A stretch of 64,000 bases of DNA from Eledone cirrhosa (taxonomy: Eukaryota), in NCBI GenBank assembly GCA_964016885.1, contig OZ024740.1, positions 241,490,001 to 241,554,000 of the forward strand, written 5' to 3'. Below, one piece after another: positions 4,896 through 62,998 of this stretch (within the stretch, counting starts at the first letter, position 1; the number at the start of each line of letters is the position of its first letter). The notes under the pieces were generated by a model. It did not search any database and was not told the origin of the DNA. It was given only the letters and a program-made list of their open reading frames with translations. The position numbers were made by a program, and so were the translations under genes.

Positions 4896-4924
4896 GTATA
4901 TATATATACAATATATATATACAT

Positions 4925-4987
<63 letters not shown>

Positions 4988-5250
4988 AGGCATGTATTGA
5001 GTTAGAAACTCAAAATAGTCTCATTACAGTAAATTAGCTCTAAGAAAAAAGCTTTTCCGAGCCGTATAGTATAACTGAACCAAAAAGAAAAACGAACATA
5101 GACATTTACATATATGTATTCACATCGTAATGGACCAGAATCGCTAAGGGGAAAAAAAATACTAACTACAGAAAATATGGTTTGTCAGACTCAAATTTAA
5201 GAATAAATGAAGAAAAATAAATACAAACCATAATTGTGATAACAACCGAA

Positions 5251-5332: not shown

Positions 5333-5788
5333 AAGAAATTAGTAACGTTATCACTTCTAAATATAATTAGAAACCGGATAATGTGTGTATATGTAACCAT
5401 ATTGTCTGCACTTAATATTTTTTTCACCTTAGCGATTCTGGTCCCATTTGAACACATATCTGTAAATGTCTGTGTTCATTTTTCTTTTTTGTTCAGTTAT
5501 CATATATATATATATATATATATGGAAAAGGATGAAACGAAATTTCATTTCTCACTCTTAGTCCGGCTGATACTTAAATGTAAGTATGTACACCTACATA
5601 CATATATGAATACAAACGTACAGTAGTATGTATATATATACATACGTGTACACATATATATATATGCACGTATGGGGTTACCGATCATTTATCATAATGT
5701 TCGGTTTGTTTATAAACAAACAGCCCGAATTACGCCGTACAGTATTTGGAAACCATCGTCGCCTTTTTTGTTCAACACTGACATAGGA

Positions 5789-5831
5789 ACGATGTACTAG
5801 TTTCGAGCTTCTTAGCTATCGTCAGCATTGT
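5789..5831 (-). ncRNA. Hammerhead ribozyme, family E
   Basis: ACAAUG-CUGACGA-uAGCU..AGCUc-GAAACUAGUA-CAUCGU. Confidence 0.72.
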
Positions 5832-6166
5832 ATACCTTTCTGTCAGATGATTGAACGTTTGAAAGTATATACTTTCCTTATGCATATCAACGACTGAGCA
5901 GCCTAATTTGCATATCGAGTGAGTTAGTCGGCCGGGCGAACCGAAAACGATAAATGGAAAAGGATGAAATGAAATTTCATTTCTTACTCTGAGTACGGCT
6001 GATACTGTACGGCGTAATCGGGCTGTTTGTTTACAAACAAACCGAACATTATGATAAATGTTCGGTAAACCCATACGTGCATATATATATATGTGTACAT
6101 GTATGTATATATACACATACTAGTGTACGTCTGTATAGATATATGTATGTACGCGTACATACTTAC

Positions 6167-6213
<47 letters not shown>

Positions 6214-21594: not shown

Positions 21595-23630
21595 GTTTTC
21601 CGGTTTTAGTCGCCAACGACTCGACCATGCACAGGTTGTACTGGATTACAAGTTACCAGTAGCACTGAAGAGCGATGGGTCAAAGGGCGGAGGAACTCAG
21701 GAGAGTCAACGGCCATCCAATAAAATATTTATTTTGTGGAGCGAGAGACTCCTATTTTTCATTAAGACATCTCTCTAGGAGAAAGTCGCTCTTATATAAA
21801 ACCTGCGACTTCGTAATCATCCAATGATGTAGACCAGTTCTATTTTTTTGGTAAATGCATTCCTCACTTAAAAAAACCTTTCCTCACTTAAAACAGTTTC
21901 AAGCACAGACATCGCTTAATATGTGAAATATTTTGTGATGCATGGTATTGCTGGCCATAGGCAAGTCCTTAGCAGGACTAAAAATCCATACCGTGATGCT
22001 CATGCTTAAGTGATGGTATTACTCGAAATCGAGTTGCAGTCATCATCATGTATGTATGTATGTATGTATGTATGTATGTATGTATGTATGTATGTATGTC
22101 AGGTCACCAGTGGTGCTACTGGTAACATGTATCCCAGTACAACCTGTCTCATGGTCGGGTCGTTGGCGACTAAACTGGCAACCCCATCAAGGTTTCTTGG
22201 TGAGGAGGGTGACTTTGGACATCCTGCAGGACTAAAAACAAAACCTGTCAAAGGGCAAAGGAGCTCTTAAGAGTCAATGGCCATCCAAAATCACCGGGAG
22301 AGATGACCCCTTAGCCTTTGTCAAGGCAGAATTCTAGGAGAAGGACAACTCTGATATAACACCTGCAACCCTAATGGTATCCAATGATGTTGACTTGTTC
22401 TTCTTTTTGGTAAATATCATCTTGGTTAAGAGAGTGGGACTGGTTTTGTGCAGTGCCTTTGCTCACCATAAAAGCTTCACGGCACAGGCATTGCTTTAAA
22501 TCTGGAGATCTCTCTGCACTTGTCATATGGTACCATGGGCCTAGCACTATGTGTCAATAATTGTCACAAGTGTAGTGTTTGTACCAGAGTTTTCAAGTCG
22601 CTGGCTGGACTAAAAAGTCACACTTGTTTAGCGCATCAGTAGGGGTTCTCCTACATGGATATAAAGTAGTGGCCGTACTCGAAAACGAGTTGGCAGCCAC
22701 CATGTATGTATGTATGTATGTAAGGGCAAAGGAGCTCTTAAGAGTCAATGGCCATCCAAAATCACCGGGAGAGATGACCCCTTAGCCTTTGTCAAGGCAG
22801 AATTCTAGGAGAAGGAAAACTCTGATATAACACCTGCAACCCTGATGGTATCCAATGATGTTGACTTGTTCTTCTTTTTGATAAATATCATCTTGGTTAA
22901 GAGAGTGGGACTGGCTTTGTGCAGTGCCTTTGCTCACTATAAAAGCTTCACGGCACAGGCATTGCTTTATATCTGGAGATCTCTCTGCACTTGTCGTCAC
23001 ATGGTACTATGGGCCCAGCACTATGTGTCAATAATTGTCACAAGTGTAGTGTTTGTGCCAGAGTTTTCATGTCGCAGGCTGGACTAAAAAGTCACACTCG
23101 TTCAGCGAATCAATAGGGTTTCTCCTACATGGATATAAAGTAGTGGCCATACTCGAAAACGAGTTGGCAGCCACCATGTATGTATGTATGAATCAATGGC
23201 CATCCAAAATCACCCGGAGAGATGACCCCTTAGCCTTTGTCAAGGCAGAATTCTAGGAGAAGGAAAACTCTGATATAACACCTGCAACCCTGATGGTATC
23301 CAATGATGTTGACTTGTTCTTCTTTCTGGTAAATATCATCTTGGTTAAGAGAGTGGGACTTCCTTTGTGCAGTGCCTTTGCTCACTATAAAAGCTTCACG
23401 GCACAGGCATTGCTTTATATCTGGAGATCTCTCTGCACTTGTCGTCACATGGTACCATGGGCCCAGCACTATGTGTCAATAATTGTCACAGGTGTAGTGT
23501 TTGTACCATAGTTTTCAAGTCGCTGGCTGGACAAAAAAGTCACTCTCGTTCAGCGCATCGGTAGGGGTTATCCTACATGGATATAAAGTAATGGCCGTAC
23601 TCGAAAACGAGTTGGCAGCCACCATACATG
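21595..23630 (+). mobile_element. Cluster of RTE-associated short elements, including three tandem ~470-bp units
   Basis: Units at about 22250-22715, 22723-23190 and 23191-23625 each end cagccaccat(gtat)n; shared 5' leader at 22102, with an inverted copy at 21601-21677. Confidence 0.8.
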
Positions 23631-23675
23631 CATGTATGCATGCGTGCATACGTGCATGTGTGCATATTTGCAATG

Positions 23676-28921: not shown

Positions 28922-29145
28922 CTGTGAACACAACATGGAAATAAAGAAAAGAAATATGTGCACATATATATATATATACGTATATATATAAATAATATAG
29001 AAATGATTTCTATATGATTAAAACGTATTGTATATTTAATAATATACTGTATGTTTATTTAAAAACATTTTGAAGGTCATTCGCTATGAATTTTAAGGTA
29101 GTGTCTAACGTCACATACCTAGTCTCGGCAAAAGCAAAGAGGAAT

Positions 29146-29189
29146 AATCGACAGTCACAGTTTCTCACTTGTAAGTTGTTGTCAAGACC
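29146..29189 (-). ncRNA. Hammerhead-like motif with U3-A8 core, at a hairpin apex
   Basis: GGUC-UUGACAA-caACUUacAAGUga-GAAAC..GUC-GAUU. Confidence 0.55.
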
Positions 29190-29377
29190 ACATACCTCTT
29201 CTCTTTTGGCGAGACTAGGTATGTGACGTTAGACACTACCTTAAAATTCATATTGAATGGCCTTCAAAAAAACATACAGTATATTGTTAAATATACAATA
29301 CGTATCTTCATATATACATCGCTATTTCAGAGCACCAATACTATATATTTATATAAATATAAGATCCCCCCCAACAC

Positions 29378-36014: not shown

Positions 36015-36191
36015 CTATCAATTAAAAGCAACAAATCAAAAGTAATACAGAGACATTATTTTTTCAATAGCATTGAAAATCTTTTAGTACATGAAGGTTA
36101 CGAAAAGATTCTCTCCCTCTCTCCCTATATATATATATATATATATATATACGATATTAATAAATGGAAACTATATTTATAAAACCATATT

Positions 36192-36256
36192 TATTTCATT
36201 ATACATATTTCAGGGATACCAAATTAAATTATGGTATGCCTTCATCAGACAAAATA
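36192..36256 (-). ncRNA. Hammerhead ribozyme, family A
   Basis: UAUUUUGU-CUGAUGA-AGGcAUACCA..UGGUAUcCCU-GAAAUAUGUAUA-AUGAAAUA. Confidence 0.78.
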
Positions 36257-36332
36257 AAATATATAACAGTTTTACAAATAAGCGTTGACGTACCCTTTTA
36301 AAATGCGACCATTATTTTAGGAAACCATCTGG

Positions 36333-36385
<53 letters not shown>

Positions 36386-36776
36386 TGTGCGTGTGTGTGT
36401 GTTTTATATATATATATATATATCATATAGAAATGACTTCTACGGGACAAGAACTGTTTCATTTGTCTGAAATAACAAAAGGATGATTTCAAAACGAATG
36501 AAACGTTTGTAGTCTTGAAATGAAACATTTCTAAATCATTTATCTTCTCTACTTAATGTATTGAGTACCTTATTTAACTGATATCTTTCCTTTTCTCTTC
36601 GAAAATCATTCATAATTATATATATATATATTTCAAGGGTAACAAAACATACCAGATAAGGTATGTTTTCCTTGGCTATGTCAAAATTTATATACACACA
36701 CATATATATATACATACATACATACATACATACATACATACATACATACATACATACATACATACATACATACATC

Positions 36777-39307
36777 CAAGATAAGAAAACACCAGGAAGA
36801 GACATGATTGTCGGCTACTGGTACAAAAAACTAATATTCTATGGGAGGTATCTTACTGACCTCTACCAACAAGTTCTTAAGGGAGATACACTTATACCAG
36901 AATGGTTGACATTAGCACAAACGTTACTGGTCCCCAAGAACAAAGACACCCACTTGACAAAAAACTACCGACCCACTGCATGCCGGAACCTGATGTATAA
37001 GATGTATACAGCCTGCCTCAACCTATTCCTCCAAGATCACTGTGAAAATAATAACATCATCACAGATGAACAAGCAGCTGGAAAGAAAGGGGTTTGGGGA
37101 TGTGCTGAACAACTCCTAATCAACAAAACTGCGATGTCGGAGGTGCAACAACTTAGGAGGAATATGACTACAGTCTGGCTGGACTACAAGAAAGCTTTCG
37201 ATTCTGTTCCCCACTCTTGGATGATAGAGGCCCTCCAACTTGCTAAAGTCCCAGACATTATTGTCAGAGCCATAGAGAGGCTGTCTTCTTCTTGGGCTAC
37301 TATCCTAAGGTTAAAGACAGAGAGGGAGGACTCTATTTTCACTGATAAAATAAAATATTGCAGGGGTATATTTCAGGGGAACAGTCTCTCTGTGATATTG
37401 TTCATCTTGTCATTAAACCCCTTGTCCTTTCTGCTCAAGAAATGTGAGGGATACATCATTGGCTCACAGGAGGACAGAAATACGAACCTAACCCATAACT
37501 TCTTTGTGGACGATCTGAAACTCTATGACAAGAACATGGATGGGATGAAGAAAAATCTTGACCTGGTTACAACGTTCTCAAAGGATATAGGAATAGAGTT
37601 TGGCCAAGTTAAATGCTCATACATGACTGTAAAGCGGGGAAAAACAACAACCCAATCTAGCAACATTGTCATCAATGGTCTAACTGTTTCACCGATATCT
37701 GATGAGGACTGCTACAGATACCTGGGGATAGATGAGAACATATCCTATAATGGTATCTCCAATAAAGAACGCGTAACCAGGGAATACCACACCCGATTAA
37801 GAAAGATCTGGTCATCGGAACACTCTGCGCAAAACAAAACAGTGGCTCACAATGTGTTTGCTGTGCCTGTCCTAACACAAACGTTTGGAATACTCAATTG
37901 GACAATAGACGAAATCCGAGCCGTTGATGTTGGAACTCGAAAAGTACTGAACAACACCGGAAACTTCCACATCAACAGTGACATAGACCGCCTTTACTTG
38001 AAACGTAAGCAGGGAGGCAGAGGCCTAACAGCAGCCCAGACAACATTTGAATGTCGCATCATATCTCTCCGACAACATCTACGAACCACGAAGCGTAGGA
38101 GCCCGCTTCTCGAGCAAGTCTATCTGCATGAAACAGATAAGATCATGAGAGTTGGGAAGGAACTCCTCGAGGGATATTCCCTGTGTGATAATCAAAATCT
38201 CACACTCAGGGATGTCGCTCAGCAGTATCGCAGTGAATCCATGGATGAAAAACTGCATGCCTATCAGCAAAAAATTATGCATGGATATGTTGCCAGGAAG
38301 CTCCAGAGTGAGAGTAATATAGATAAGGAAAGTAGTCTATCTTGGACCAACAACCGCTATATTGGCTCCCACTTTGAAGGATACGCTTTTGCAATCCAAG
38401 AACAGGAGATTAGCACGAAATACCTGATTCACAAAAGAGATAGGGATGCAGGCAAAACACCTAGATGTGATAACAAGTGCAGACTCTGCAGAACTAACAT
38501 CGAGGATATCACCCATGTCATCAGCAGCTGTCCAAAGATGTCATCGCGGTACTATCTACTTATGAGGCATGATGTAGTGGTCAAAACACTGTACAATGCA
38601 GTTCGTAAAAAAGATAGCCCCGATAACAAACACATTAAAAGCTACAACAATGTGGAATACATCCATGTACATAATATGAAAGAGTACTGGTGGAATGTTC
38701 CAGTAAAAACCCCAATAAAATGCAGGCATAACAGACCAGATATTATGATATTGGACAGGGAGAAGAAAACATGCACAGTAGTGGAAGTTAGCTGTCCAGC
38801 AGATGCCAATATAATATCAAAGATTAGCGAAAAGGAGAATATTTATGCAGAACTGATAAGAAATCTGCAGATACTCCACCCTGATTACACCTTCAGATTT
38901 ATGCCTGTGATTATTGGGACACTGGGATATGTTAGTAACTGCCTCAATACAAATCTTGAGAAGCTAGGCTTCACAGGAACAGAAAGAACACAACTACTTA
39001 GGAAATGACAAGTACAATCGATTAATGGAACAGTAAAAATATGTAAAACATTCCAAAAAATTTGCATCTAATAACTGCATATACACATGTACAGATACAA
39101 AGCATATACACATGCACACATACAACTCAAAACATACACATCCACACATACGATAACATCCATATCTACACATGCATGCATGCAGACATACATACATATC
39201 TACCTAGTTGATGTTGTGTAAATTCCAATGAGAGAGTCTTGTGTCTATATTAGAAACCGACTCTCTCTCTATTGGTAAAACTTTGTGAAATTATAAAACC
39301 AGAAGAA
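36777..39307 (+). mobile_element. Dong/R4-like RLE non-LTR retrotransposon, 5'-truncated, inserted in (TACA)n
   Basis: RT motifs NYRP, WLDYKKAFDSVPH, GIFQGNSLS, FVDDLK, YRYLG; CRLC..H....C knuckle, RHD, RPD...E restriction-like endonuclease; premature TGA at about 39006 where other copies have TTA; 3' UTR ends ttataaaaccagaagaa before (cata)n. Confidence 0.92.
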
Positions 39308-39399: not shown

Positions 39400-40790
39400 A
39401 AAGTAAGTTATGTGGTAATCTTTGTTGTTCTTTTTTCTGTCCAATATTTCGGGACCTAAAAGTCCCTTCATCAGGATTTAAGGAACCTTCAGTGGATAAC
39501 ATTCCAATTTTCTCTCTTTGGGATTAGATTTTAATTTTGATTTAAATTTTTTCGAAGTCATTTTCAAGCGTTTTTTTATGATTATTTCGCTTTTCACGAG
39601 AATGACGTCCATTGACAATATAGTATTGCGCGAAATTAATTTTGGCTTTTGTATGAGATGTTTAGTTTGAGTGTCTCTGGGTGTGTCTTTTTATGTTAAG
39701 TACTGTGTGCTGAGTTGTAATCTATTATTTATTTGCGGGTTGAGTCTACGTATGAGGAAGGCTTCCTTAATTCTTAAATTACCCATATTCTATCACTAGC
39801 TTTAATAGTAACGGTAAAATGTTGGTTGATGTTGCTACATTTGTCGATGTGTTTTTTTAATGATGATGCATGTGTGTTGAGGTGTTCTTTAATGCGAGTG
39901 TGGAGTGCTCGAGTTGTGCTACCAATGTAGAAGTCCTTACATTTGTTGCATTCAATCCGGTATACCACATGTGTCCGCTGGCACATACCTGTATCGCGGA
40001 TAGCGCAGTTAGTCAGCGAGCATTGATTGTTGTTGTCTCTGGACAACCGCTTTTTAGACAGGTATCCACACAGTGAAGGGCCGGAGTGTGTTAATTGTAT
40101 GTCCAGTCCTTCTTTGCGGATAGCTGTGGTTATGCTTTCGCTGAAATGTGGTAATTTCATGAAGCAGGTGCTGGAGGACGCCTTCTGTCTGCGGCGCCTT
40201 CGATTCTTAAGTCGATTCACTGTGGATGTTGGGTATCCGTTCGTCTTCAGTGCATCTATGAAGTGTGCAGTGTGAGTGAGCTGGTCTTGCTGCATTTATT
40301 CCGGATACGAATAAATTCATTTCTTATGTATCCAGTTTTAGCACCAAGGGGGAGAGCTCATCTATAATGCACAAACAAGTCTCTTCTGGCAGCTCCGCTA
40401 TAGAAGTTGGTGTATTGAGTACCTTCTGATACTCTAAGTTGGAAGTCTAGCAGAGACAAGGAACCATTTTTATCGGGGTGTTCTGTGGTAAATCGTATAT
40501 TGTTATCTGTGTTTGAAAACACTGTAGATATTATGTCGGCCTCTTCACGGGATGATGTGAGGATTAGTATATCATCTATATATCGGGTGAAGAAAATACA
40601 GGCTAGGCAGGTGTTGAGCACTCAACGTTCCAGTTGGTTGATATAGGTAATGGCTAGAAGTCCTGAAAGACTGGGCTCCATGGGAAGGCCTGTTGTTTGT
40701 TTGTATGTGTAGTGTTCAAAAGTGAAATATGTATTTTCTACGATGACGGATAGAAGCTGATATATGTCTTGCGGAGTGAGGTCGAAGCTA
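39400..40790 (-). mobile_element. Degenerate Penelope-like element related to the 3150-4895 copy
   Basis: GLPMEPSLSG, RYIDD, LSLLD, NGYP, VYRIECNKCKDFYIGSTTRALHTRIKEH spread over three frames; HHR-like motif downstream at 39440-39478. Confidence 0.85.
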
Positions 40791-42733: not shown

Positions 42734-42854
<121 letters not shown>

Positions 42855-42936
42855 GTTATTGCGGGTTGAATCGGAGGTAACCACAGTAAGTAAGGTACTC
42901 AATACATTGCAGAGTATAAAAGTTTTAATATAGATG

Positions 42937-42987
42937 AGATTCTACAGGACTAGAACTGTTTCATTCTTTAGAAATCATCAGGAATCT
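42937..42987 (-). ncRNA. Hammerhead ribozyme, family H
   Basis: AGAUUC-CUGAUGA-uUUCuaaaGAAu-GAA-ACAG..CUGU-A-GAAUCU. Confidence 0.8.
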
Positions 42988-43572
42988 GGGTATCAAAAAA
43001 TAAATATGGTATTTATAGGTCTCTACAAGTGGTAGGAGAGGGTGGGGAGTGGGATGGGTGTAGGTCATTGGTTGATAGAAAAGGGAATTCATTAAAGCTA
43101 ATTCTACAAAGCTATAGTTTATTTTTTTATTAATTTTCGTTTTTAGGGTAACAAAGGCAGACAAAATTCTATAAACAGGTTCCGGATGGCATACCATTCC
43201 TTGTCATTAAGTTTCTCTTAAGCTAACAGATGTCTATAAGATCAGTGGGGGGTCAGTCATGGTAGATAGAATTAAAGGAAAGGGAGATTCTTTAAAAGCT
43301 AAATTCATTAAGGTTCTACTAAGTGACAAAGGTTTAGAGAATTCTGTAGACAGATTCAAAATACTGAGTGCATATCTTACAATTCTCTTCGAACTTCTCT
43401 TAAACTGATCAACTATATGCCAAAAATCAACAGACACATTCACAAAAAAACAGACTCACTCACACACTCACGCGCAACCATAAACACACATACACATACA
43501 CATATAGACACATAGAAACACACACACATATATAAATATATTTAGATATATATATATATATATACACACATA

Positions 43573-44247: not shown

Positions 44248-44290
<43 letters not shown>

Positions 44291-44464
44291 GTTATTCCGG
44301 GTTGAATCGGAGGTAACCACAGTAAGTAAGGTACTCAATACATTGCAGAGTATAAAAGTTTTAATATAGATGAGATTCTACCGGACCAGAACTGTTTCAT
44401 TCCTCAGAAATCATCAGGTGATGATTTCTAAAGAATGAAACAGCTCCAGTCCTGCAGAATCTCA

Positions 44465-44544
<80 letters not shown>

Positions 44545-45950: not shown

Positions 45951-46572
45951 ATAAATATATATATATATAAATATAAATATATATATAAATATATATAAAT
46001 ATATATATATATAAATATACATATATATAAATATATATATATATATCGTTTCTGAATTTGTTTAGCAAGATTCTTTATCTGAAATCGTGTGTTCAAACCG
46101 ATATTGTTGTTCTTTGGGAGGGTCATGTTGCCAATAAATTGAAGTGAACCAACTGGTGCGTGTGTTTCTTATTGGCAACATGACCCTCCCAAAGTATAAC
46201 AATATATATATATATATATATATATAAATATAAATATATATATAAATATTTATATATATATATATAAATGTAACTATGTATACGTACATACATATATGTA
46301 TACAGACGTACAGTAGCATGTATATATATATATATATACATACAGGAACATATATATGCACGTATCTCTGGCAGAAAGGTATACGGTGCTGACGATAGCT
46401 AACAAGCTTAAAACTAGTACATCGTCATGTGTCAGTGTTGATCAAAAAGGTGACGTGTTTTCCTAACACTGTACGGCGTAAATCAGGCTGTTCGTTTGTT
46501 TACAAACGAACAAAGCGATCATTATAATAAATGTTCGGTAAACTGATACGTGAATATATATATGTGTGCCTG

Positions 46573-46669
<97 letters not shown>

Positions 46670-46777
46670 GCTACTGTACGTCTGTATACATATATGTATG
46701 TACGTATACATACATACTTACATTTAAGTAAGTGCCGTACTAAGAGTGAGAAATGAAATTTCGTTTCATTCTATTCC

Positions 46778-46841
<64 letters not shown>

Positions 46842-46880
46842 GATATTAACAAATGGAAACTATATTTATAAAACCATATT

Positions 46881-46945
46881 TATTTCATTATACATATTTC
46901 AAGGATACCATGTTAAATTATGGTATTTCTTCATCAGACAAAATA
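46881..46945 (-). ncRNA. Hammerhead ribozyme, family A
   Basis: Same fold, stem II AUACCA/UGGUAU. Confidence 0.72.
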
Positions 46946-47152
46946 CAATATATACCAGTTTTATAAATAAACATTGACGTACCCTTTCAAAATGCAACCG
47001 TTACTTTTGGAAGACATCAGGATAGTTTTGTGTGTGTGTTTGCATGCGTAGTTTTATTTTATTTTTCCTTTCCTTCTCCCTTCTCCAGCCTCACTTTCAT
47101 ATAGATTGCATTTTTGGTTTTGTAATCCAAATTCAATAAACAAACCAGCTTT

Positions 47153-47212
47153 TTCCGTTCTGATGATTGAAAGCAAAACCTTTTGCTTTTAAGAAACCAC
47201 TGGTAAATGGAA
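47153..47212 (+). ncRNA. pLTR hammerhead ribozyme (identical copy at 51473-51532; diverged copy at 50034-50093)
   Basis: UUCCGUU-CUGAUGA-UUGAAAGCAAA..UUUGCUUUUAA-GAA-ACCacuGGU-A-AAUGGAA. Confidence 0.85.
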
Positions 47213-47528
47213 TAATTGCCTTATGTTGTTTATTACATAATTGTTTCTACTTTAGGCACAAGGCCAGCAATTACCCAGTGCATTACTGGCACTTTATTTT
47301 ATCGACCCCGTAAGGATGAAAGGCAAAGTCAACCTCGGCGGGATTTGAACTCAGATCGTGCTCTGTTGCCTACTCTTTTTTCCTGGACTTTTCCGATGGA
47401 ATTACTTGATTTATACAGCTCCAACCGGGATTGATCGCAGCATATTCTATATTACATATACGATTGGCACTTTCCAGCCCGATTAGTTGAGCACTCTACA
47501 GTTTTCAGGAATTTAACCAACATACACC

Positions 47529-49655
47529 ATGGACCTTTATGATTTGGATTATTCTATCAAAAATATACCCACTCCTTCCAACACGACTTACACCAAAATC
47601 CTCATTGATAAAATCGAACAAGTCGTTAAAAGAATGAGATGGAAGGCAATGGTTTACGATGGACTATTCAGTGCTGATACTAAAGATTATTTTGACATTA
47701 AATCCCGTAAATATCCACCTAGAATTAAAGACATGGCCAACTTCGAATTAGACCTCGTTAATCTAATTAGTGATATCAAATTTCGTAAGTACAATAATAA
47801 CTTTCAAACTAAACTTTCTAACGATATCTCTAATTTTAGAAATTCTACAAACACTTTCGTTCTTTCTGATAAAACTAAAGACCTCTTTGAAGTTAATAGT
47901 AATTTGTATAACCAACTTTTAACTAATAGTATTACCAATAAATATCAATTAACTAATAATAATAGCTACAATACTATCAATAAAGAAGCTAAAGAACTAG
48001 CTAGTTCTTTACAAATAGATAACCGGATTGAAAGCTTAGCTAAGCGTAAAGAATATATTACCCTTAAAGACCATAAATTGGACTTTACTAATCGACCTAG
48101 TTGTAGACTGATTAACCCGGCTAAATCCGAGGTTGGCCTTGCTAGTAAGAAAATCTTAAGAAAAATAATTCTCCAAATTAGAACTAACACTGACCTTTCA
48201 CAGTGGCTAAATACTTCCTCTGTTATTTCTTGGTTCAATAATATACAAGGTAAAAATAAGTGTAGATTTACCCAATTTGATATTGTCGATTTTTACCCTT
48301 CTATTACTGTTTCCTTATTAACTAATGCCTTAGATTTTGCAAGACCCTTCATTAATATCTCTAAATTAGAAGAGGACATTATCTTTCATGCTAGAAAAAC
48401 TTTACTTTTTACTAATGATAATATTTGGGTTAAAAAGTCAAACCCTGAAAACTCTTTCGATGTTGCAATGGGTTCCTATGACAGTGCGGATGTGTGCGAC
48501 TTAGTAGGATTATTCCTTCTCCACACACTCAAAGAGAAATTTCCGTCCCATAATATCGGTTTATACCGTGATGACGGATTAGCAGTTTCTCATACCACCA
48601 ACGGCCATAATCTTGATAAATTCCGTAAAGATTTAATTAGTACTTTTGCTAATCTTAACCTTAAAATTACTATAGATACGAACCTTACTAATGCTAACTT
48701 TCTTGATATTAATCTTGATCTACTTACTGCCTCTTTTAAACCCTATCATAAACCTAATGAAAATCTTAGGTATATACACAAAGAGTCTTGCCATCCCCCT
48801 ATAGTTTATAATAATCTTATTCCTAACATTAGCCTTAGGATATCTACCTTATCTTCGTCTATAGACATTTTTAATAAAGCGGGCCCTTATTATAATAAAG
48901 CCCTTAAGAACAGCGGTTTTACAGAAAATATTTCTTATTTACCTACTCCCCCCCCCTAAAACTAACCATAATAACAGGAAAAGGAAGATTATTTTGTTCA
49001 CACCCCCCTTCTCTCTAAATGTCAAAACTAATGTAGAATTCCTTGAACTATTAGACAAACATTTTCCTCCTATTCATAGATATTATAAGATTTTTAATAG
49101 GAATGTAGTTAAGATCAGCTACTCTTGTTGCCCATCCATGAAGTCCAAAATCACCAGTTCAAACCGTACGAGGATAAATCCAGGATGCAGTTGCAGGAAG
49201 CCGGATGAATGCCCATTGCAGGGTAAATGTAACACGAAATCTGTCGTTTATGAGGCTAAGATAACGCCAGTTATCAACAACCAGCCAGCCAGGAGTGAGC
49301 GATATGTCGGTATGACCCAGGACAGGTTAAAAACCAGATTTTACTCACATGTCGCTTCTTTTAAGCACTCTGATAAACGAACATCAACGGCCCTCGCAAG
49401 TAAGGTATGGGATCTCAAGGATAGTAATATCCCGTACTCTATTGATTGGTCTATTTTAGACCATTCGAGAGAGTACCAAAGGGGCACAAAGAATTGTTCT
49501 TGTGTACCACAGAAAAGTATAGGATTTTGCTAAACTTGAGAGCCACTTCCGCTTGCCTTAACTCAAAGACTGAGATCTTCAGATGCTGTCCTCATCTGAA
49601 ATCGCATCTGATCTGTAACTGGATTGACACTCCTATGATAAATCAACCGCCTTGA
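47529..49655 (+). pseudogene. PLE reverse transcriptase / GIY-YIG endonuclease ORF, broken by frameshifts near 48955 (C run) and about 49500
   Basis: Three consecutive ORF pieces (47529-48959, 48994-49533, 49446-49655) give continuous RT-thumb-GIY-YIG motifs. Confidence 0.85.
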
Positions 49656-49906
49656 ACTCCTTTTCTGCTCTTTACTTCTGCTACGGTTTTTATTTTGCTG
49701 ATTCTAGCTTCTGTACTCTTGTATATTTAACATTTTTTTCTCTCTTACCTCCCCTTATATTTTTACCTCCTCTTAGCCCCCCCCCCATATATTCTTTTTG
49801 TTTTGCCCTTCACATACCTATGTGTATGTGTATGTATTATTTTTTTTTTTTGTGTGTATATATATGTGTGTATATATGTATATATATGTATATGTGTATG
49901 TATATA

Positions 49907-49955
<49 letters not shown>

Positions 49956-50254
49956 TTGTGTATGTGTATTTATATGTATATTTGTGTGTGTATATGTATG
50001 TATATGTGGATAAACCAGGTTTTTTTCACTTTTTTTCATTCTGAAGACTGAAGGAAACATTTTTTGCTTTTAAGAAACCTCTAGTGAATGGAATAATTGC
50101 CTTATGTTGCTTTATTACCTTACTACTATATATACGTTTATGTAAGGTTCATTTGTCTTTTCTAATACTGAGTTTTACACATACACACATGTATATGTGT
50201 GTGTTTATGTGTAGGCACATGTGTATATGTACGTATGTGTGTATGTGTGTGTGT

Positions 50255-50317
<63 letters not shown>

Positions 50318-50368
50318 ATGTGCGTGTGTGTTTATTATTTTATGTTTTTATGTATGTGTGTGTGTGGT

Positions 50369-50403
<35 letters not shown>

Positions 50404-50567
50404 GTGTATTTGTTTTTGGTTGTGCGTGTTTTTGATATATACGTATTTGCATGTGTATAATTGTTTAGCTATGTATGTATATGTGTGTTTATGTATATGC
50501 GTGTGTGTGTGTGTGTGTGCGTTTATATTTTTATATTTTTGTATATATATATATATATGTGTGTATA

Positions 50568-50618
<51 letters not shown>

Positions 50619-50865
50619 ATATAATTACATATACATGTGTGTGTGTGTTTAATATGTATACGTGTGCGTGTTTGTGTATGTATGTGTATGTATGTGTTTT
50701 TGTATTTGTTTATGTATATTTATGTATGAGAGTGTGTGTATGTGTTTACTATTTCGTACGTATGTATACGTGCTTTTTTGTGTGTATTACTTACCTCGCG
50801 TGTCTGTCCTGTTAGCTGGGTCATGTATCGCTGTCAAAAATTTTTAAAATAAAATATATAGATAT

Positions 50866-50908
<43 letters not shown>

Positions 50909-51653
50909 CTTATATTTATTTGCGTGTGTGAATATGTAGAGGAGTGCATTCATGTATGTGTATGTATGTACGTTTTGTATGTTTGTGTGAATGTATGTAT
51001 GTGTATATATATGTGTGTGTGTATGGCTATGTTTGTGTATGTGTATGCTTGTACACACACATGTGTATGTGTGTGTATGTGTATGTGTGTATATGTATAT
51101 ATATGTATATATATATATATATATGTACATATATATATGTGTGTGGATATGTGCGTGTGTGTGTGTGTGTGTGTGTGTGCGCGTGTGTGTATATGTATTA
51201 ATGTATGTATGTGTATATGTGTGTATATATGTGTTTGTGTAGGTAAGTGTACGTTTTATATATATGTGTATATGTATATATGTGTGCGTACACACACATA
51301 TATATATGTATATATGTATGTGTGTGTAAGTATGCTTTTGGGTTTTTTTGTGTGTGTGTTTGCATGCGTAGTTTTATTTTATTTTTCCTTTCCTTCTCCC
51401 TTCTCCAGCCTCACTTTCATATAGATTGCATTTTTGGTTTTGTAATCCAAATTCAATAAACAAACCAGCTTTTTCCGTTCTGATGATTGAAAGCAAAACC
51501 TTTTGCTTTTAAGAAACCACTGGTAAATGGAATAATTGCCTTATGTTGTTTATTACATAATAATAATAATTAAGCTCTGTTGCCTACATAGAGCACTCTT
51601 TTTTCCTGGACTTTTCCGATGGAATTACTTCACACATATATATATATACAAAT

Positions 51654-52074: not shown

Positions 52075-55000
52075 TAAATATAATAAATAACAAAGAACGC
52101 CTATAGCATATGCATATCTTTACTTGCTAACATTGTTTCATCCGCACTATAAGTGGGACTCATCAGAGCATAAAGGTTAATTACATACCATACAAGCAAT
52201 AACAAATCCAAGACATTGAAGAATGAAAAATAATAATAGACGATAAAGGATATTAAGGAAGTAAAAGTAAAAATAAAGATAAGAATAAAAATAAAAATAA
52301 AAATAAAAATAAAAATAAAAATAAAAATAAAAATAAAAATAAAAATAAAAATAAAAATAAAAATAAAAATAAAAATAAAAATAAGATAATAAAATAAACA
52401 ATGAAAAATAAGCAATGAAAAATAAGGGGTGCTATCAGTCACAGTTGGGCGGGGTGCTGTCAACATATAGTTACATACAAGCATACACATGGATAAGAGA
52501 ACAGACAAGAGTAGATAAGATAGATGGGATTAGGTAAGAGTAGGTAAAAAATAGGTGAAAAACAGACTTATAATATATATAAGAAAATATAAAGAAATAC
52601 ATAACAAACTTACATATAAAATATAAAATATACAGATAATAGTGATACAGGGTAAGGAATGAGATAAAATAATATAAAATTAAAATTAAAATTATATAAA
52701 ATAGAACATAATATAATATAATCGTAAAATAAGATAAAATAAGGTAAACTAAAATCAAATAACATAGACTAAATTAAAATAATATAATATAAGATATAAT
52801 TAAGTCTAATTAATAGCAATAGAGGTGTCGTGAACGGGAGGTTTCTGGATGCCGGTGGAATGAACCAGCAGGGCACCATTAGTCTAAGTAATAGCAATGG
52901 TAGGCCTCGCAGCTCCCCGCATAGACTAGGTGAGCATAGGAACCGTAGAAATAATAATGCTAATAATACTGATGGAAATAGAAAGAATAAAAAGAATAGA
53001 AGATTGAATACATACTTCAACTCCCCTTTTAATTCTGAAGTGGCTATAAATATTCCTAGGGCCTTCTTCTCTGTGTTAGAAAGGAACTTCCCTCCTGGTA
53101 ATAGGTACCACTCTATCCTCAATAAGAATATTGTTAAACTTTCGTATTCTACAACCCAAAATCTGGCCTCTCATCTGGCCATTACTAATAATAAGAAAAT
53201 AAAGGAAGGCCTGGACAACCTAAGCCTAGGGGAAAACACGGTAGTGGACAGTGGGCAGAAACACAAGTGGTGATCATTCTGAGAATAGCATCACCAGAGG
53301 TTGTAACTGTAGAAGGGCTTCAGGCTTCCCCCTGAATGGTTTCTGCCTTGTTAGAAACATAGTTTATGCGTGTGATGTAGTAACTACGGCGTCCACTAAG
53401 ACCTATATAGGATCAACCTCCACCCCCTTTAAGACCAGGTTTAACTCTCACCAATGCACTTTTAGACATAATAAACTGAGGAACTCCACCTCCTTGGCAG
53501 CGTACGTCCATAATTTAAAAAATGCACGAACACATTACACACTTACTTGGCGGCAGGTTGCTAAATCCCATCCATATACTCCTCATAATAGAGTATGTAA
53601 CCTATGCCTTGCCGAATCCCACTCTATTATATTTGCTAAATGCCCTCTACTAAATAGAAAGTCTGAAATATTTTCCTCTTGCCCCCACCGGATATTAAGC
53701 TCTTTCTTCTACTTTAAACCTGTTAGCTAGCACTTCCTTATTCCTCCAGTTGGGCTGTCTTGTGTAACTGTCTCTGACTGTGTGTAACTGTCTCCTATTG
53801 TTGGTCGTCTATGTATACGAGTCGGTGAATGTATACGTATGCCTGTGGGAGGATATTGATCTGGATATTGGGATGTGCAGGTGAGCGGGTGTGTATGTTA
53901 ATAAGCACCCCTGTTTGGCACAGTGGATGTAACCCATCCACGCTCGCCTACCCACCATTGGTGCATTGGTGGGTCTATCCTGACGTATATCTTGTTGATC
54001 TGTACCTCTGTATGCGCATGAGTTGTGATGTAATGTATTTATGTAAAGCGTGTACTGCGATTTAGGCTGCACTAATAGAAATTTAGCCTGTAACTGTGGG
54101 CGGACCCGTGCCATCCCGCCGTAAGCAGTGGATACGTGGCGCATGTACGTGTTGCCCTCATATTCTGTGGTTTAAGATCTACAGGCTGACCTCTGGGAGC
54201 TCTTGCCCGGGGTTGTAGTCTTTCTAGCACGATCGGCCTTCCATATATTAACGGTCGTTGTTATGATCCCGAAAGTAACGTTTTGGCCCCGATAGCCCTC
54301 CGTAGTTACTAACGGTCTGTGTACACTTGAATCGGGCAATGGCACGTGCGGACATGAATATCTCCGTGGGATTTCAACTTTATTTTACTACATCTCATCG
54401 TATGTATTTATTTTGAATGTATTACCTGTGGTGGTGGGTCTGGTCTAATGTGGTATTTCGGTGTTTAATATCAGCTTTGACCCGGGTGTCCTACGCTGTG
54501 TGTGTGTGCGTGTGTGTCCGTGTATACATTTATATGTGTATGGGTGTAGGTGGTTGTATATGTCTGTATATAAAAAAAAAAATATATATATATATGTATA
54601 CCGTCTCTGCATATGCATGTGGTGTGTATATGTGCATATACGTGCTGAACATATTGATGTGCACAATCTTGTGATGTCCCAATGCGGTGACTTAATGGCT
54701 CTTGAAGCTATTTTTTATATATCTTCTGTCCTTTTATATATCTTTTGTATGCGCTACAACTGTGTCTGCTTGCTTTGGCTAACCCGCCTGCACCTCGCTT
54801 GCTAATGCACGTGAATTCTTCTACCTCCTTCGATGCACCTCTCTCTGACCATTGGACTCCTGCCCGGGTGTGAACCGGTTTGTGATTATCCCACCGCTCA
54901 ACTGTGTGAATGCACACCCGTGACTTTCGAGTGAACTTTTGAGACTGCCCAACCTGGATCGCCTCCATTGCCTTGCAATGGTCAAGTGATACTGGGGACT

Positions 55001-55232
55001 GTGACACTTAGTGCCTCCGTGGGCCCCTGATGTTTTCAAGAAATATACTTTAAAAAAATGGTCAAGTGATACACATAACTGTGACACTTAGTGCCTTCGT
55101 GGGCCCCTGATATATTCAAGAGATATATTCTAAAAAAATATATATCTTATCTCAATTTACTTTATTTCATTTTATTTTATTTTATTTCATTTCATGTTAT
55201 CTAATTTTATTTATTTACTTATTTAACTCCAT

Positions 55233-55264
<32 letters not shown>

Positions 55265-56020
55265 ATTTAAATTTTAATTTTATTTATTTATTTAATTTTT
55301 ATTTATTTATTTATTTATTTATTTAATTACATTTAATTACATTTAATTATACATTTAATTATATCTTATATTATATTATTTTAATTTAGTCTATGTTATT
55401 TGATTTTAGTTTACCTTATTTTATCTTATTTTACGATTATATTATATTATGTTCTATTTTATATAATTTTAATTTTAATTTTATATTATTTTATCTCATT
55501 CCTTACCCTGTATCACTATTATCTGTATATTTTATATTTTATATGTAAGTTTGTTATGTATTTCTTTATATTTTCTTATATATATTATAAGTCTGTTTTT
55601 CACCTATTTTTTACCTACTCTTACCTAATCCCATCTATCTTATCTACTCTTGTCTGTTCTCTTATCCATGTGTATGCTTGTATGTAACTATATGTTGACA
55701 GCACCCCGCCCAACTGTGACTGATAGCACCCCTTATTTTTCATTGCTTATTTTTCATTGTTTATTTTATTATCTTATTCTTATTTTTATTTTTATTTTTA
55801 TTTTTATTTTTATTCTTATCTTTATTTTTACTTTTACTTCCTTAATATCCTTTATCGTCTATTATTATTTTTCATTCTTCAATGTCTTGGATTTGTTATT
55901 GCTTGTATGGTATGTAATTAACCTTTATGCTCTGATGAGTCCCACTTATAGTGCGGATGAAACAATGTTAGCAAGTAAAGATATGCATATGCTATAGGCG
56001 TTCTTTGTTATTTATTATAT
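52075..56020 (+). mobile_element. 5'-truncated Naiad-type Penelope-like element with an inverted copy of its 3' repeat at the 5' end
   Basis: 52830-53730 encodes YFNSPFN..VKLSYS, GCNCRR..PL...C, IVYAC...YIGST..FKTRFNSH, CNLCLAE, LLNRKSE; about 52075-52815 is the reverse complement of about 55350-56020; HHR in each repeat. Confidence 0.88.
55928..55973 (+). ncRNA. pLTR hammerhead ribozyme (inverted copy at 52125-52170 -)
   Basis: UGCU-CUGAUGA-GUCC..GGAU-GAAACaauGUU-AGCA. Confidence 0.78.
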
Positions 56021-56952: not shown

Positions 56953-57456
56953 TATTACTGAGGACCTATTTAGTTTTTATAGAGAATATTAGGAGGGAGG
57001 GGTGAAGTTGTTAGAAGAATAGTTGAAGGAGTGGTTTTTCGATAGCAGTGAGAATTCTTGGTGGCAGTGAGTAATTAGATTCCCATCTGTTGTTTTGACA
57101 TTTTTTATAGAATATATTATTGGTTATTTTTCTAAATCTATAGAAGGATTAGAGATAGTAAAGATATGCGTGGTTGGTTTTGTGTTTGCACTTAATTAAC
57201 ATTCAGACTTAAATTTTTCTTTCAAGTGTACGTATCCTTTCACCCACGCATTCACACACAAATATATTTGCACACCTCTACAAAATACATATACTCACAA
57301 TTCACATATTCATACTTACATATATATACACATGCATACACATATATATACACACATGTATTCATGTACATACATACGCGCTCATGTGTATACATTTTCA
57401 TACTCAACTTATCTTTGTATACACACTACAACACAACGGAAAATACTGTATATATA

Positions 57457-57524
<68 letters not shown>

Positions 57525-57555
57525 CATATATATAAATATATATATATATATAAAT

Positions 57556-57648
<93 letters not shown>

Positions 57649-57649
57649 C

Positions 57650-57720
<71 letters not shown>

Positions 57721-57721
57721 C

Positions 57722-57802
<81 letters not shown>

Positions 57803-57803
57803 A

Positions 57804-57840
<37 letters not shown>

Positions 57841-57841
57841 A

Positions 57842-57888
<47 letters not shown>

Positions 57889-57897
57889 TATATATAA

Positions 57898-57928
<31 letters not shown>

Positions 57929-57941
57929 AATATATATATAA

Positions 57942-57972
<31 letters not shown>

Positions 57973-57983
57973 AATATATATAA

Positions 57984-58018
<35 letters not shown>

Positions 58019-58079
58019 AATATATATAAATATATATATAAATATATATAAATATATATATATATATAAATATATATAA

Positions 58080-58112
<33 letters not shown>

Positions 58113-58162
58113 AATATATATAAATATATATATAAATATATATAATATATATAAATATATAC

Positions 58163-58211
<49 letters not shown>

Positions 58212-58220
58212 ATTATATAT

Positions 58221-58271
<51 letters not shown>

Positions 58272-58373
58272 AATATATAAATATATATATAAATATATAA
58301 ATATATAAATATATATATAAATATATAAATATATATATAAATATATATATATATATAAATATATAAATATATA

Positions 58374-59637
58374 TTTGGATTTAATGCTCTGAAATAGCGA
58401 TATATATGTGAAGACAAACAGAATATTCGAAAATATTCTGTATGTTTATAATAAACATTTTGAAGACCCAATCGCTATAGAATAGAATACGTCACGTATT
58501 ACAATTTGAGATTCTCGATAAAAGCAAGGGAAGTAATCTACGCGTTTCATTCTTATTAGAAATCATCAGGATTACATATCCAATGCTTTTATCGAGAACG
58601 ACACAGCTAGAGACTTATAGAATACTTAGCTGTGTACAGGAACTGGTTTGAAAGAGCGGTAGCCGGTCCGGCAGAAATTAGAATTTGGATTTAATGCTCT
58701 GAAATAGCGATATATATGTGAAGATAAACATAGAATATTCGAAAATATTCTGTATGTTTATAATAAACATTTTGAAGACCCAATCGCTATAGAATAGAAT
58801 ACGTCACGTATTACAATTTGAGATTCTCGATAAAAGCAAGGGAAGTAATCTACGCGTTTCATTCTTATTAGAAATCATCAGGATTACATATCCAATGCTT
58901 TTATCGAGAACGACACAGCTAGAGACTTATAGAATACTTAGCTGTGTACAGGAACTGGTTTGAAAGAGCGGTAGCCGGTCCGGCAGAAATTAGAATTTTG
59001 ATTTAATGCTCTGAAATAGCGATATATATGTGAAGACAAACATAGAATATTCGAAAATATTCTGTATGTTTATAATAAACATTTTGAAGACCCAATCGCT
59101 ATAGAATAGAATACATCACGTATTACAATTTGAGATTCTCGATAAAAGCAAGGGAAGTAATCTACGCGTTTCATTCTTAATTCTAAACGTGTAGATTACT
59201 TCCCTTGCTTTTATCGAGAATCTCAAATTGTAATACGTGACGTATTCTATTCTATAGCGATTGGGTCTTCAAAATGTTTATTATAAACATACAGAATATT
59301 TTCGAATATTCTATGTTTGTTTTCACATATATATCGCTATTTCAGAGCATTAAATCCAAATTCTAATTTCTGCCGGACCGGCTATCGCTCTTTCAAACCA
59401 GTTCCTGTACACAGCTAAGTATTCTATAAGTCTCTAGCTGTGTCGTTCTCGATAAAAGCATTGGATATGTAATCCTGATGATTTCTAATAAGAATGAAAC
59501 GCGTAGATTACTTCCCTTGCTTTTATCGAGAATCTCAAATTGTAATACGTGACGTATTCTATTCTATAGCGATTGGGTCTTCAAAATGTTTATTATAAAC
59601 ATACAGAATATTTTCGAATATTCTATGTTTGTCTTTC
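58374..59637. repeat. Tandem plus inverted ~311-bp HHR repeat (retrozyme-like)
   Basis: Units start at 58374, 58684 and 58996; orientation flips at about 59180. Confidence 0.9.
59469..59511 (+). ncRNA. Hammerhead ribozyme, family G (minus-strand copies at 58533-58575 and 58845-58887)
   Basis: GUAAUC-CUGAUGA-uUUCUaauaAGAAu-GAAACGCGUA-GAUUAC. Confidence 0.85.
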
Positions 59638-60033
59638 TATATATATATATATATATAAATATATATATTTATATATATGGAAAGTTATATTTAAAATTGT
59701 TGGGTTACAACTAGTAAATATTTATAACTGATATAAAAGCACTCGACAAATATTTGGAGTATATTTACAATATTAAATAAATGGAAACTATATTTATAAA
59801 ACCATATTTATTTCATTATATATATTTCGGGGATATCATATTAACAATATGCTATGCCTTCCTCAGACAAAATACAATATAAACAGTTTTATAGATAAAT
59901 ATATTCGACATACCGTTATAAACACCGACTTCCATTTGGAGAGGTTTACGCCGCCAGCGTAAACCTCTCCAAATGGAAGTCGGTGTTTATAACGGTATGT
60001 CGAATATATTTATCTATAAAACTGTTTATATTG

Positions 60034-60099
60034 TATTTTGTCTGAGGAAGGCATAGCATATTGTTAATATGATATCCCCGAAATATATATAATGAAATA
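60034..60099 (+). ncRNA. Hammerhead ribozyme, family A (mirror copy at 59809-59874 -)
   Basis: CUGAGGA core, GAAAUAUAUAUA, same stem I. Confidence 0.7.
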
Positions 60100-60165
60100 A
60101 ATATGGTTTTATAAATATAGTTTCCATTTATTTAATATTTTCTATATATATATATATATACAAAT

Positions 60166-61112: not shown

Positions 61113-61165
<53 letters not shown>

Positions 61166-61169
<4 letters not shown>

Positions 61170-62066
61170 GGTAAAAATGAAACGAAATTTCTTTTCCCAC
61201 TCTTAGTACGGCTGTTACTTAAATATAAGTATGTACACGTACATACATATATGTATGCAGACGTACAGTAGTACGTATATATATATATATATACATACAT
61301 GCACACATATATATATGTACGTATGGATTCACCGAACATTTATTATAATGCTCGGTGTGTTTGTAAACAAACATCCCGTATTAAGCCGTAGTGTCCACCA
61401 ACCATCGTTGCTCGTTTGTTCAACACTGACAAAGGAACGCTGTACTAGTTTCAAGCTTATTAGCTATCATCAGCAACGTATACCTTCCTGCCAGATTGTT
61501 GAACGTATATACTTACCTTATGCATATTAACGGCTGAGTAGCTCAATTTGCATATCGAGTGGGTTAATCGGCCGGTGCACCGAAAACGATAAATGGTAAA
61601 AATGAAACGAAATTTCATTTCCCACTCTTAGTACGGCTGTTACTTAAATATAAGTATGTACACGTACATACATATATGTATGCAGACGTACAGTAGTATG
61701 TATATATATATATATACATACATGCACACATATATATATGTACGTATCGATTCACCGAACATTTATTATAATGCTCGGTGTGTTTGTAAACAAACATCCC
61801 GTATTAAGCCGTAGTGTCCAGCAACCATCGTTGCTCGTTTGTTCAACACTGACAAAGGAACGCTGTACTAGTTTCAAGCGTATTAGCTATCATCAGCAAC
61901 GTATACCTTCCTGCCAGATTGTTGAACGTATATACTTACCTTATGCATATTAACGACTGAGTAGCTCAATTTGCATATCGAGTGGGTTAATCGGCCGGGT
62001 GCACCGTACTAAGAGTGGGAAATGAAATTTCGTTTCATTTTTACCATTTATCGTTTTCGGTGCACC
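61166..62066. repeat. Tandem ~424-bp HHR repeat with short inverted tail (family E; also 5522-6170 and 46260-46780)
   Basis: Units start at 61166 and 61591; 62005-62066 is an inverted copy of the unit junction. Confidence 0.88.
61437..61479 (-). ncRNA. Hammerhead ribozyme, family E (tandem copy at 61860-61902)
   Basis: ACGUUG-CUGAUGA-uAGCU..AGCUu-GAAACUAGUA-CAGCGU; palindromic ACUAGU stem III. Confidence 0.78.
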
Positions 62067-62793
62067 CTAAGAATTTTTAAACTAAACATATGGTCATTAT
62101 TTTTTTCACACATTATTGATATGTGTCTCATTCATGAATATTGATATTTACATTATAATACCTAATTCATATGAATTGATAAACTGATGAAACATAATAT
62201 TTTAAATCTATCATCTTCCTTTCTGAATATATCTACTTGCTCTCCTCCTCCCTCTACACTTGACGGGATTTATGTATCGGCTGATTTAACTCTACCTCCT
62301 GTATCTCACCCCTCCCCTATCTCTCCCACCTCGTATAATAGATATTACTCGATCTACCTCTTTTCTCCCACCACCTATATCTCTCTCTACCTCTCTTTAT
62401 TTGTTTTTACTTGTATTTCTCTCCGTATCATTAACACTATAACTAAATAAATAAATTAATAAATAAATAATTACAGTACCCCCTTCCCTCCTAAATCTCT
62501 CAGTTGTACGTTATTCATCTGTGCCCCAGCTGCCTATCATTTTTCACCTCCTCAATATTTCTCTCTCTCATATCTCTCTCTCTATCTCGCTCTGTTGTTT
62601 TTTCTTTACATACTTTTGTTCATTTTCTTCGTCTTCCTCTCTAACTGTCCTTAGCACTATACACTTTCTTTCTTTTTCTCTTCGTATTTCTTTCTAACTG
62701 TCCTTAACATTTTCACTACCAAAACAACTTTTTAAATGGAAGTTGTAAAGTTTAAGGTATGTCAAATTTATTTATAATACTGTTTATATATTG

Positions 62794-62859
62794 TATTTTG
62801 TCTGAAGAGGGCATACCATATTTTTAATATGATATCCCTGAAATATATATAATGAAATA
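62794..62859 (+). ncRNA. Hammerhead ribozyme, family A
   Basis: CUGAAGA core, GGG../..CCU stem II, same stem I. Confidence 0.72.
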
Positions 62860-62998
62860 AATATGGTTTTATAAATATAGTTTCCATTTGTTTAACATCG
62901 TATATATATATATATTTATATATATATATATTTATATATATATTTATATATATATATATTTATTTATATATATATATATATTTATTTATATATATATA

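Follow-up and report, generated by a model that had tools for sequence, protein, structure and literature searches.

A tandem and inverted array of 312-bp hammerhead ribozyme repeats in a (TA)n microsatellite, probably a retrozyme-type element mobilised by Penelope-like enzymes

The locus at 58374–59637 of the 64-kb stretch of DNA analysed here (the window) raises the question of how a tandem array of hammerhead ribozyme repeats, followed by an inverted copy of itself, came to lie within a (TA)n microsatellite, and whether a circular RNA was its template. TRF delineated a tandem at 58373–59179 with a period of 312, 2.6 copies and 98% matches, correcting the 311-bp unit of the original prediction, and BLAST returned an inverted match at 58710–59646 with 97% identity. 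The main arm (58374..59179, minus strand) is 806 nt long and contains 2.58 tandem units of the 312-bp monomer, and the inverted arm (59185..59635, plus strand) contains 1.45 units, in good agreement with the approximately 2.6 and 1.5 units first proposed. Both arms are truncated at the 5′ end and terminate in (TA)n at the 3′ end, the inverted arm having no tail, and they meet head-to-head (5′ to 5′) at an inversion junction of 5 extra bases (59180..59184). The left part of the (TA)n target microsatellite was delimited by TRF at 57449..58373; the right part occupies 59638..59678, and a different hammerhead element starts directly after it.

The 312-bp unit has a GC content of ~0.32 and was rejected as protein coding, the longest stop-free frame being 56 codons in any frame of a trimer; likewise, no RT or GIY-YIG ORF was found inside the element at 58374–59637. 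A Pol III promoter was considered unlikely, given the absence of a B-box pattern match on either strand (using what we take to be the B-box consensus) and the presence of two T4 runs on the ribozyme strand. The unit copies carry six private substitutions and one 2-nt deletion in ~1260 nt (~0.5%), with one private substitution located within the truncated half-ribozyme at the inversion junction. Because the copies differ so little, the insertion of the array appears to be young, as the original prediction had supposed.

Three identical intact type I hammerhead motifs were identified by a descriptor scan, with cores at 58881 and 58569 on the minus strand and at 59475 on the plus strand. The two main-arm motifs (58845..58887 and 58533..58575) are spaced 312 nt apart and are predicted to cleave after 58851 and 58539, respectively, and the sole intact plus-strand motif (59469..59511) is predicted to cleave after 59505. 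Each consists of a 6-bp stem I, an intact core and a 4-bp stem II closed by a U·U mismatch at its base, where G-C is usual. The U that follows stem I on the 3′ strand occupies what we take to be the position of the loop 1–loop 2 contact. Stem III is the palindrome ACGCGU, with CGCG between A15.1 and U16.1; this palindrome and the 6-bp stem I of each complete unit had both been anticipated from the letters, and the former fits dimer-dependent cleavage (PMC4209133). The strict type I descriptor matched none of 5000 dinucleotide shuffles of the 312-bp unit. Rfam Hammerhead_HH9 was found at all three motif sites with a sub-threshold score (22.1 bits versus a gathering score of 52, E 0.036), and there were no Rfam matches at the gathering level in the 64-kb window. 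Rfam microRNA matches were dismissed, as all were below the gathering score and fell on perfect palindromes or AT repeats.

Two successive complete hammerheads had been predicted for the array; these are present in the main (left) arm only (58881 and 58569), the right arm having a single intact motif, so that at most one unit-length monomer (58850 to 58539) could be released from the locus. The ends of this predicted 312-nt cleavage-to-cleavage monomer (58539..58850, minus strand) would be held together by stem I and by an extension helix beyond it. The helix had been described as a perfect 15-bp clamp: it is indeed predicted to form, with 16 pairs of which one is G-U.

The predicted fold of the 312-nt monomer has a z-score of −4.85, with none of 100 shuffles equally good, and that of the circular monomer has a z-score of −4.2 (60 shuffles). 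In the predicted ensemble of the left-arm RNA, stem I has a pair probability of 0.85–1.0 and stem II of ~0.15, and a one-molecule stem III is unpopulated. The energetic penalty for imposing the monomeric active fold on two motifs is 13.4 kcal/mol, or 3.0 kcal/mol with stem III open, and the ACGCGU duplex is predicted to contribute −7.5 kcal/mol. The palindrome and these modelled energies would fit the dimer-dependent mode of cleavage reported for canonical hammerheads of metazoans (PMC4209133; PMC6765202). For a transcript of the whole locus, the prediction is a long hairpin in which the ribozymes at 58887 (minus strand) and 59469 (plus strand) become buried, with 43 of the 43 bases of a buried ribozyme paired far away. 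The inverted arm is thereby predicted to block monomer release from read-through RNA, and the copy at 58374–59637 would yield a monomer only if transcription began inside the left arm.

The outer ends of the array bear on how it was inserted. The 5′ truncation points lie 17 nt (left arm) and 9 nt (right arm) upstream of the cleavage-site position, and both arms begin inside the ribozyme core. In monomer coordinates, the left arm stops at position 167 and the right arm at position 130, or 141 counting an internal AT run, leaving a 37-nt PLE-type 3′ tail (58374..58410, minus strand) on the main arm only, or a tail of 26 nt if the internal AT run is target homology. Both 3′ ends are flanked by (TA)n, and a target duplication is unreadable inside the microsatellite. 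Published descriptions of PLE insertions include partial tandems, an adjacent inverted 5′-truncated copy and a 30–40-bp tail that is often one-ended, with (TA)n targets in the PLE clades Naiad and Hydra (PMC8557442). Purified PLE protein has been reported to cut and extend both strands of AT-rich DNA and to start at two internal RNA sites bounding the tail (PMC11167929). Judged by its sequence, the combination of an inverted 5′-truncated copy, a one-sided tail and (TA)n is the PLE insertion signature of these reports (PMC8557442; PMC11167929), and by analogy the inverted arm is the usual inverted 5′-truncated copy of such an insertion.

Public sequence runs containing the stretch comprised three from one sample of organism A (X1, X2 and X3) and one from organism B in a second study (X4). 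No RNA run was listed as containing it, which has no bearing on expression. The 1060, 953 and 893 matching contigs in X1, X2 and X3, respectively, establish that the 312-bp hammerhead repeat is a dispersed multi-copy family with different flanks and joints, and that the present array is one of many copies, not the single-locus duplication that the original prediction had named as its possible undoing. Summed contig depth was near 100,000, compared with 3–32 for single joints; depth is not copy number, and read from it the family appears to be very high-copy. Further copies run out into TA-rich letters at 58710 (monomer position 141) in at least four, at least four and at least five contigs of X1, X2 and X3, respectively, and, among the matches listed, at 59362 or just after 59349 (positions ~165–169) in X2 and X3; these 3′-end tallies cover 12 of 17 and 20 of 146 rows. 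A single 5′ end was joined directly to TA, at 58450 (X1). All 15 joints listed (15 of 22) run from left arm to right arm, as head-to-head inversions would, each joint carrying little weight since its sides are only 20–29 letters long and were matched at 85% likeness; some of them (53/51, 137/129) may be short internal palindromes. The idea that 5′ ends cluster at the cleavage site as a rule was discarded, as the 15 joints, which belong to other copies, are spread across monomer positions 51–291. Because the scars follow PLE rules (inverted copy, one-sided tail, (TA)n), and because other genomic copies end at the same two places, we consider it very probable that the element is a PLE-mobilised retrozyme-type element.

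These contigs also bear on whether the array or its inversion might be an assembly or chimeric-read artefact, which we regard as highly improbable. The inversion junction at 59180 was bridged by none of the best 27 of 2982 contig pieces, a gap that carries no proof by itself, and palindromes beside long (TA)n tracts are known to be hard to assemble (PMC8557442). Against an artefact, the two arms have different lengths, ends and flanks as well as private substitutions; independent short-read contigs contain the family together with its 3′ ends, and the unit is present in a second organism. Furthermore, the bin that contains the private change at 59115 had low depth (2.7 in X1 and 2.0 in X3), as a copy-specific contig would give.

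Within the window, a contactin-like gene is represented by at least seven exons at 9140–36012 on the minus strand. Two Octopus species have contactin-like proteins that match the exon at 31 kb with 76% and 61% identity, which makes an octopod the probable host. No counterpart of the first 171 residues of the homologue was located in the window, including 36–64 kb. A Pfam search of ten ORFs identified RT at 4273–4998 and GIY-YIG at 3809–4471 and 39777–40295, with RT also present in a long ORF at 36660–39005, and no Pfam match for four PLE-looking ORFs at 47.5–49.5 kb and 52.8–53.7 kb. The presence of RT and GIY-YIG fragments in the window supports the involvement of a PLE, although no autonomous element sharing the tail of the array was found in the 64 kb. 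When the window was searched for pLTR homology, the sole matches were a relative at 29 kb, which is non-coding, and a ribozyme core at 42.9 kb. The relative (28967–29361) is ~75% identical to the focal unit and has the same inverted layout with a tail on one arm; it is non-coding, truncated before the ribozyme and without a hammerhead. A hairpin upstream of the 3′ ends is kept in this relative with one compensatory change, in a comparison of three sequences only.

The hammerhead core pattern produced 28 matches at 16 distinct sites in the window, compared with 0.75 expected by chance. Nine loci were inspected, namely the focal array and eight others chosen by eye, which give no frequency, and all have inverted segments with (TA)n at or near them. 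This recurrence at eight other loci selected for inspection argues against local amplification, according to which only one ribozyme-bearing unit arrived by insertion, with DNA slippage, unequal crossover or fold-back repair subsequently generating the tandem and the inversion on the spot (satellite birth). Growth of a PLE terminus into tandem repeats is discussed by Li et al. (bioRxiv 10.64898/2026.07.22.740005), and local copying would also be expected to produce the rare allele that all three copies share at 58661, 58973 and 59383 (monomer position 190), which accounts for less than 1% of summed contig depth and suggests that the three units descend from one template. However, the two outer ends of the array, which coincide with the two ends of other copies, are set apart by a PLE-sized tail and are both embedded in (TA)n, and the units differ only by private changes that form no pattern of nested duplication. 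We therefore consider local amplification improbable and retain insertion by PLE machinery as the explanation of the array.

Several other hammerhead-bearing repeats were noted in the window. A second, unrelated retrozyme-like family is represented at 61164–62067 by a 423-bp unit in two minus-strand copies, which contain type I hammerheads (cores 61896 and 61473) with a palindromic ACUAGU stem III; one end of this element lies in (TA)n and a short inverted arm is present at 62004–62066. Older relatives of the 423-bp family were found at ~5520–6170 (core 5825) and 46330–46780. Kinship with the 312-bp family was rejected, since only the ribozyme core and AT-rich words match between the two. Both AT-rich units contain, after the tail, a short GC-rich stretch that includes CCGG words (58650–58680 in the 312-bp unit and 61560–61590 in the 423-bp unit) and might be a promoter element. 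Hammerheads of a third family, which combine a long stem II with a stem III of the TATATA type, occur at 59678–60148, 760–1150, 36150–36340, 46840–47030 and 62730–62900; the copies at 59760–60148 and 760–1053 are near-perfect head-to-head palindromes in which one arm alone carries ~80–95 additional bases, more than a PLE tail usually has. Hammerheads at 42851–42990 and 44287–44471 have nearly the focal stem II, including the U·U closure, but a long stem III with which they could work as monomers; both elements begin at a (TA)n tract, and a short inverted arm accompanies the second.

Larger structures were also observed. A 4-kb element at 52078–56020 has inverted ends of ~700 bp with hammerhead cores at 52166 (minus strand) and 55932 (plus strand), and contains at 52800–53730 broken ORFs resembling a GIY-YIG endonuclease without RT, with no Pfam match. 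The segment at 47026–51561 has broken PLE-looking ORFs (47517–49533, no Pfam match) between identical 216-bp direct repeats, each holding a hammerhead core (47160 and 51480), and is a probable pLTR-flanked element that could lend itself to assignment to a PLE clade. A 448-bp tandem of three copies at 22274–23638 contained no hammerhead core in our scans.

Judged from sequence features, the element is likely to be a further family of a known class, the animal non-LTR retrozymes, and a non-autonomous PLE derivative. Families of this class described by Cervera and de la Peña (2020) include Rtz331 and Rtz353 of axolotl, those of mussel and coral, and newt satellite 2 (PMC7229834). As characterised there, they have 150–450-bp low-GC non-coding tandem units with one canonical type I hammerhead each and no LTR; the 312-bp low-GC non-coding tandem, with its canonical type I hammerheads, fits the retrozyme architecture originally proposed for it (PMC7229834). 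The axolotl ribozyme HHR_Amex1 has a palindromic tetraloop on a one-pair helix III and HHR_Amex2 has U·U at the base of helix II, so that two weakening features found in different axolotl families are combined in the focal ribozyme (PMC7229834). In contrast to the focal locus, which has all three, no inverted arm, tail or (TA)n target is described for animal retrozymes in the accessible text of that paper (PMC7229834). Endonuclease-positive PLEs are alike in their partial tandems, inverted 5′-truncated copy, 30–40-bp tail, AT-rich or (TA)n target and type I hammerhead within the repeat (PMC8557442; PMC11167929); the focal element differs from them in having no RT or endonuclease ORF and a ribozyme of canonical build instead of the minimal pLTR type. 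An autonomous PLE was excluded by the missing RT and GIY-YIG ORF, and a plant LTR retrozyme was excluded because it requires type III hammerheads in two LTRs, whereas the focal motifs are of type I in plain tandem units. The non-autonomous MRC1 elements of the Chlamys PLEs are similar in their non-coding, multicopy, head-to-tail PLE-driven insertions but belong to green algae and to a clade reported to lack canonical hammerheads (PMC8557442).

Li, Clavereau and Pollet (2026) have argued that retrozymes are non-autonomous PLE derivatives (bioRxiv 10.64898/2026.07.22.740005). The focal locus has the consecutive units with complete hammerheads (at least two) by which their preprint, in its accessible part, defines a retrozyme operationally, and PLE fragments co-occur with it. 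Their evidence consists of co-occurrence and pLTR homology in Xenopus, with no mollusc lineage named in that part of the text, whereas the evidence presented here is an insertion scar. In a search of mainly open-access literature, we found no octopod retrozyme family and no tail-and-inversion scars on a retrozyme; the 312-bp family may already be catalogued in repeat databases such as Repbase or Dfam. For the giant squid genome, the accessible source gives 235 Hammerhead_1 matches as a count only.

The nature of the RNA template was considered from the positions of the ends. The 3′ ends lie 130–167 nt downstream of the cleavage site, so that a cut linear monomer would yield at most 167 nt of cDNA, and an arm of 2.58 units would need a circle, an uncut multimer or template jumps. 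Circular and linear retrozyme monomers have been detected by northern blot in coral, mussel and axolotl (PMC7229834). In X4, the unit is represented by one contig of 342 nt (312 + 30) with eight differences and no gaps, from a library of unrecorded type; the six differences listed spare the core and include one in loop 2 and one in stem I that preserves the pair as G-U. The other two of the three matching X4 contigs cover the microsatellite edge only. We infer that 342 nt is the length of a closed loop in a 31-letter-word graph, and the contig fits a circular RNA or a uniform tandem.

Alternatively, the same PLE machinery could have inserted the same element from a linear multimer, left uncut after transcription of a uniform tandem array; the hammerhead would then be a slow or protein-assisted pLTR relic and circles would be irrelevant to transposition. 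We regard this as a serious possibility whose chances fall somewhat short of even. The shared allele and the 342-nt contig are accounted for by a uniform tandem source array no less well than by a circle. With the anole PLE, cleavage by the ribozyme was dispensable in vitro, uncut RNA was the main and favoured template, and the ribozyme needed protein (PMC11167929), and one of nine Xenopus retrozyme dimers cleaved in vitro, the other eight remaining uncleaved (bioRxiv 10.64898/2026.07.22.740005). The focal ribozyme itself has weak predicted stems II and III, its combination of a one-pair stem III with U·U at the base of stem II speaking against efficient cleavage, and the non-autonomous Chlamys PLEs, from their clade without canonical hammerheads, also insert as multicopy head-to-tail arrays (PMC8557442). 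On the other hand, the focal ribozyme is canonical and full-length, with a 6-bp stem I, an internal loop and a long clamp, and is not of the minimal pLTR type (PMC4209133). Among the ribozyme variants listed in organism A, all fall in loop 2 and none in the core or stems, and comparable animal repeats accumulate as circles (PMC7229834). Because of the weak ribozyme, the anole result and the single cleaving Xenopus dimer, a circular RNA as the template of insertion is only an even bet against an uncut multimer.

From the anatomy, the two 3′ ends, the tail, the inversion and the many relatives, all of which were read directly, we infer the following course of events for insertion from a circle. 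A tandem copy elsewhere in the genome would be transcribed, and neighbouring hammerheads in the transcript would pair through ACGCGU and cleave after GUA to release a 312-nt monomer. A host ligase would close the monomer, as proposed for other animal retrozymes (PMC7229834). A PLE protein would then nick both strands of the TA tract, and reverse transcription would start at two internal sites ~37 nt apart, ~130 and ~167 nt downstream of the cleavage site. The two cDNAs would circle for 2.6 and 1.45 turns before stopping and being joined 5′ to 5′. Taken as a whole, this chain, in which a retrozyme-type repeat was pasted into (TA)n by a PLE endonuclease and RT from a circular unit-length RNA, seems to us about evenly poised between being right and wrong.

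In the literature accessible to us, the link between retrozymes and PLEs has so far been based on co-occurrence and sequence homology, and the scars described here would connect a retrozyme with PLE enzymology through mechanism; that the circle takes part in transposition is likewise treated there as a hypothesis. The boldest reading, that these genomic scars record how a Penelope enzyme primed at internal sites of a small circular RNA, from both strands of the TA tract, and rolled past intact ribozymes, is offered tentatively and is rather doubtful. If it were true, the scars would be direct evidence for the hypothesised step from circular RNA to genome in animal retrozymes, in a cephalopod family of thousands of copies, and the closed 342-nt contig of X4 would be the circle itself. 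The inverted arms, if read through, would give long double-stranded RNA, which could matter for RNA editing in the host group, animals known for heavy RNA editing. With its young insertion, apparently very high copy number, fixed 3′ ends, tail and variable inverted arms, the family is good material for testing both the link to PLEs and the role of the circle.
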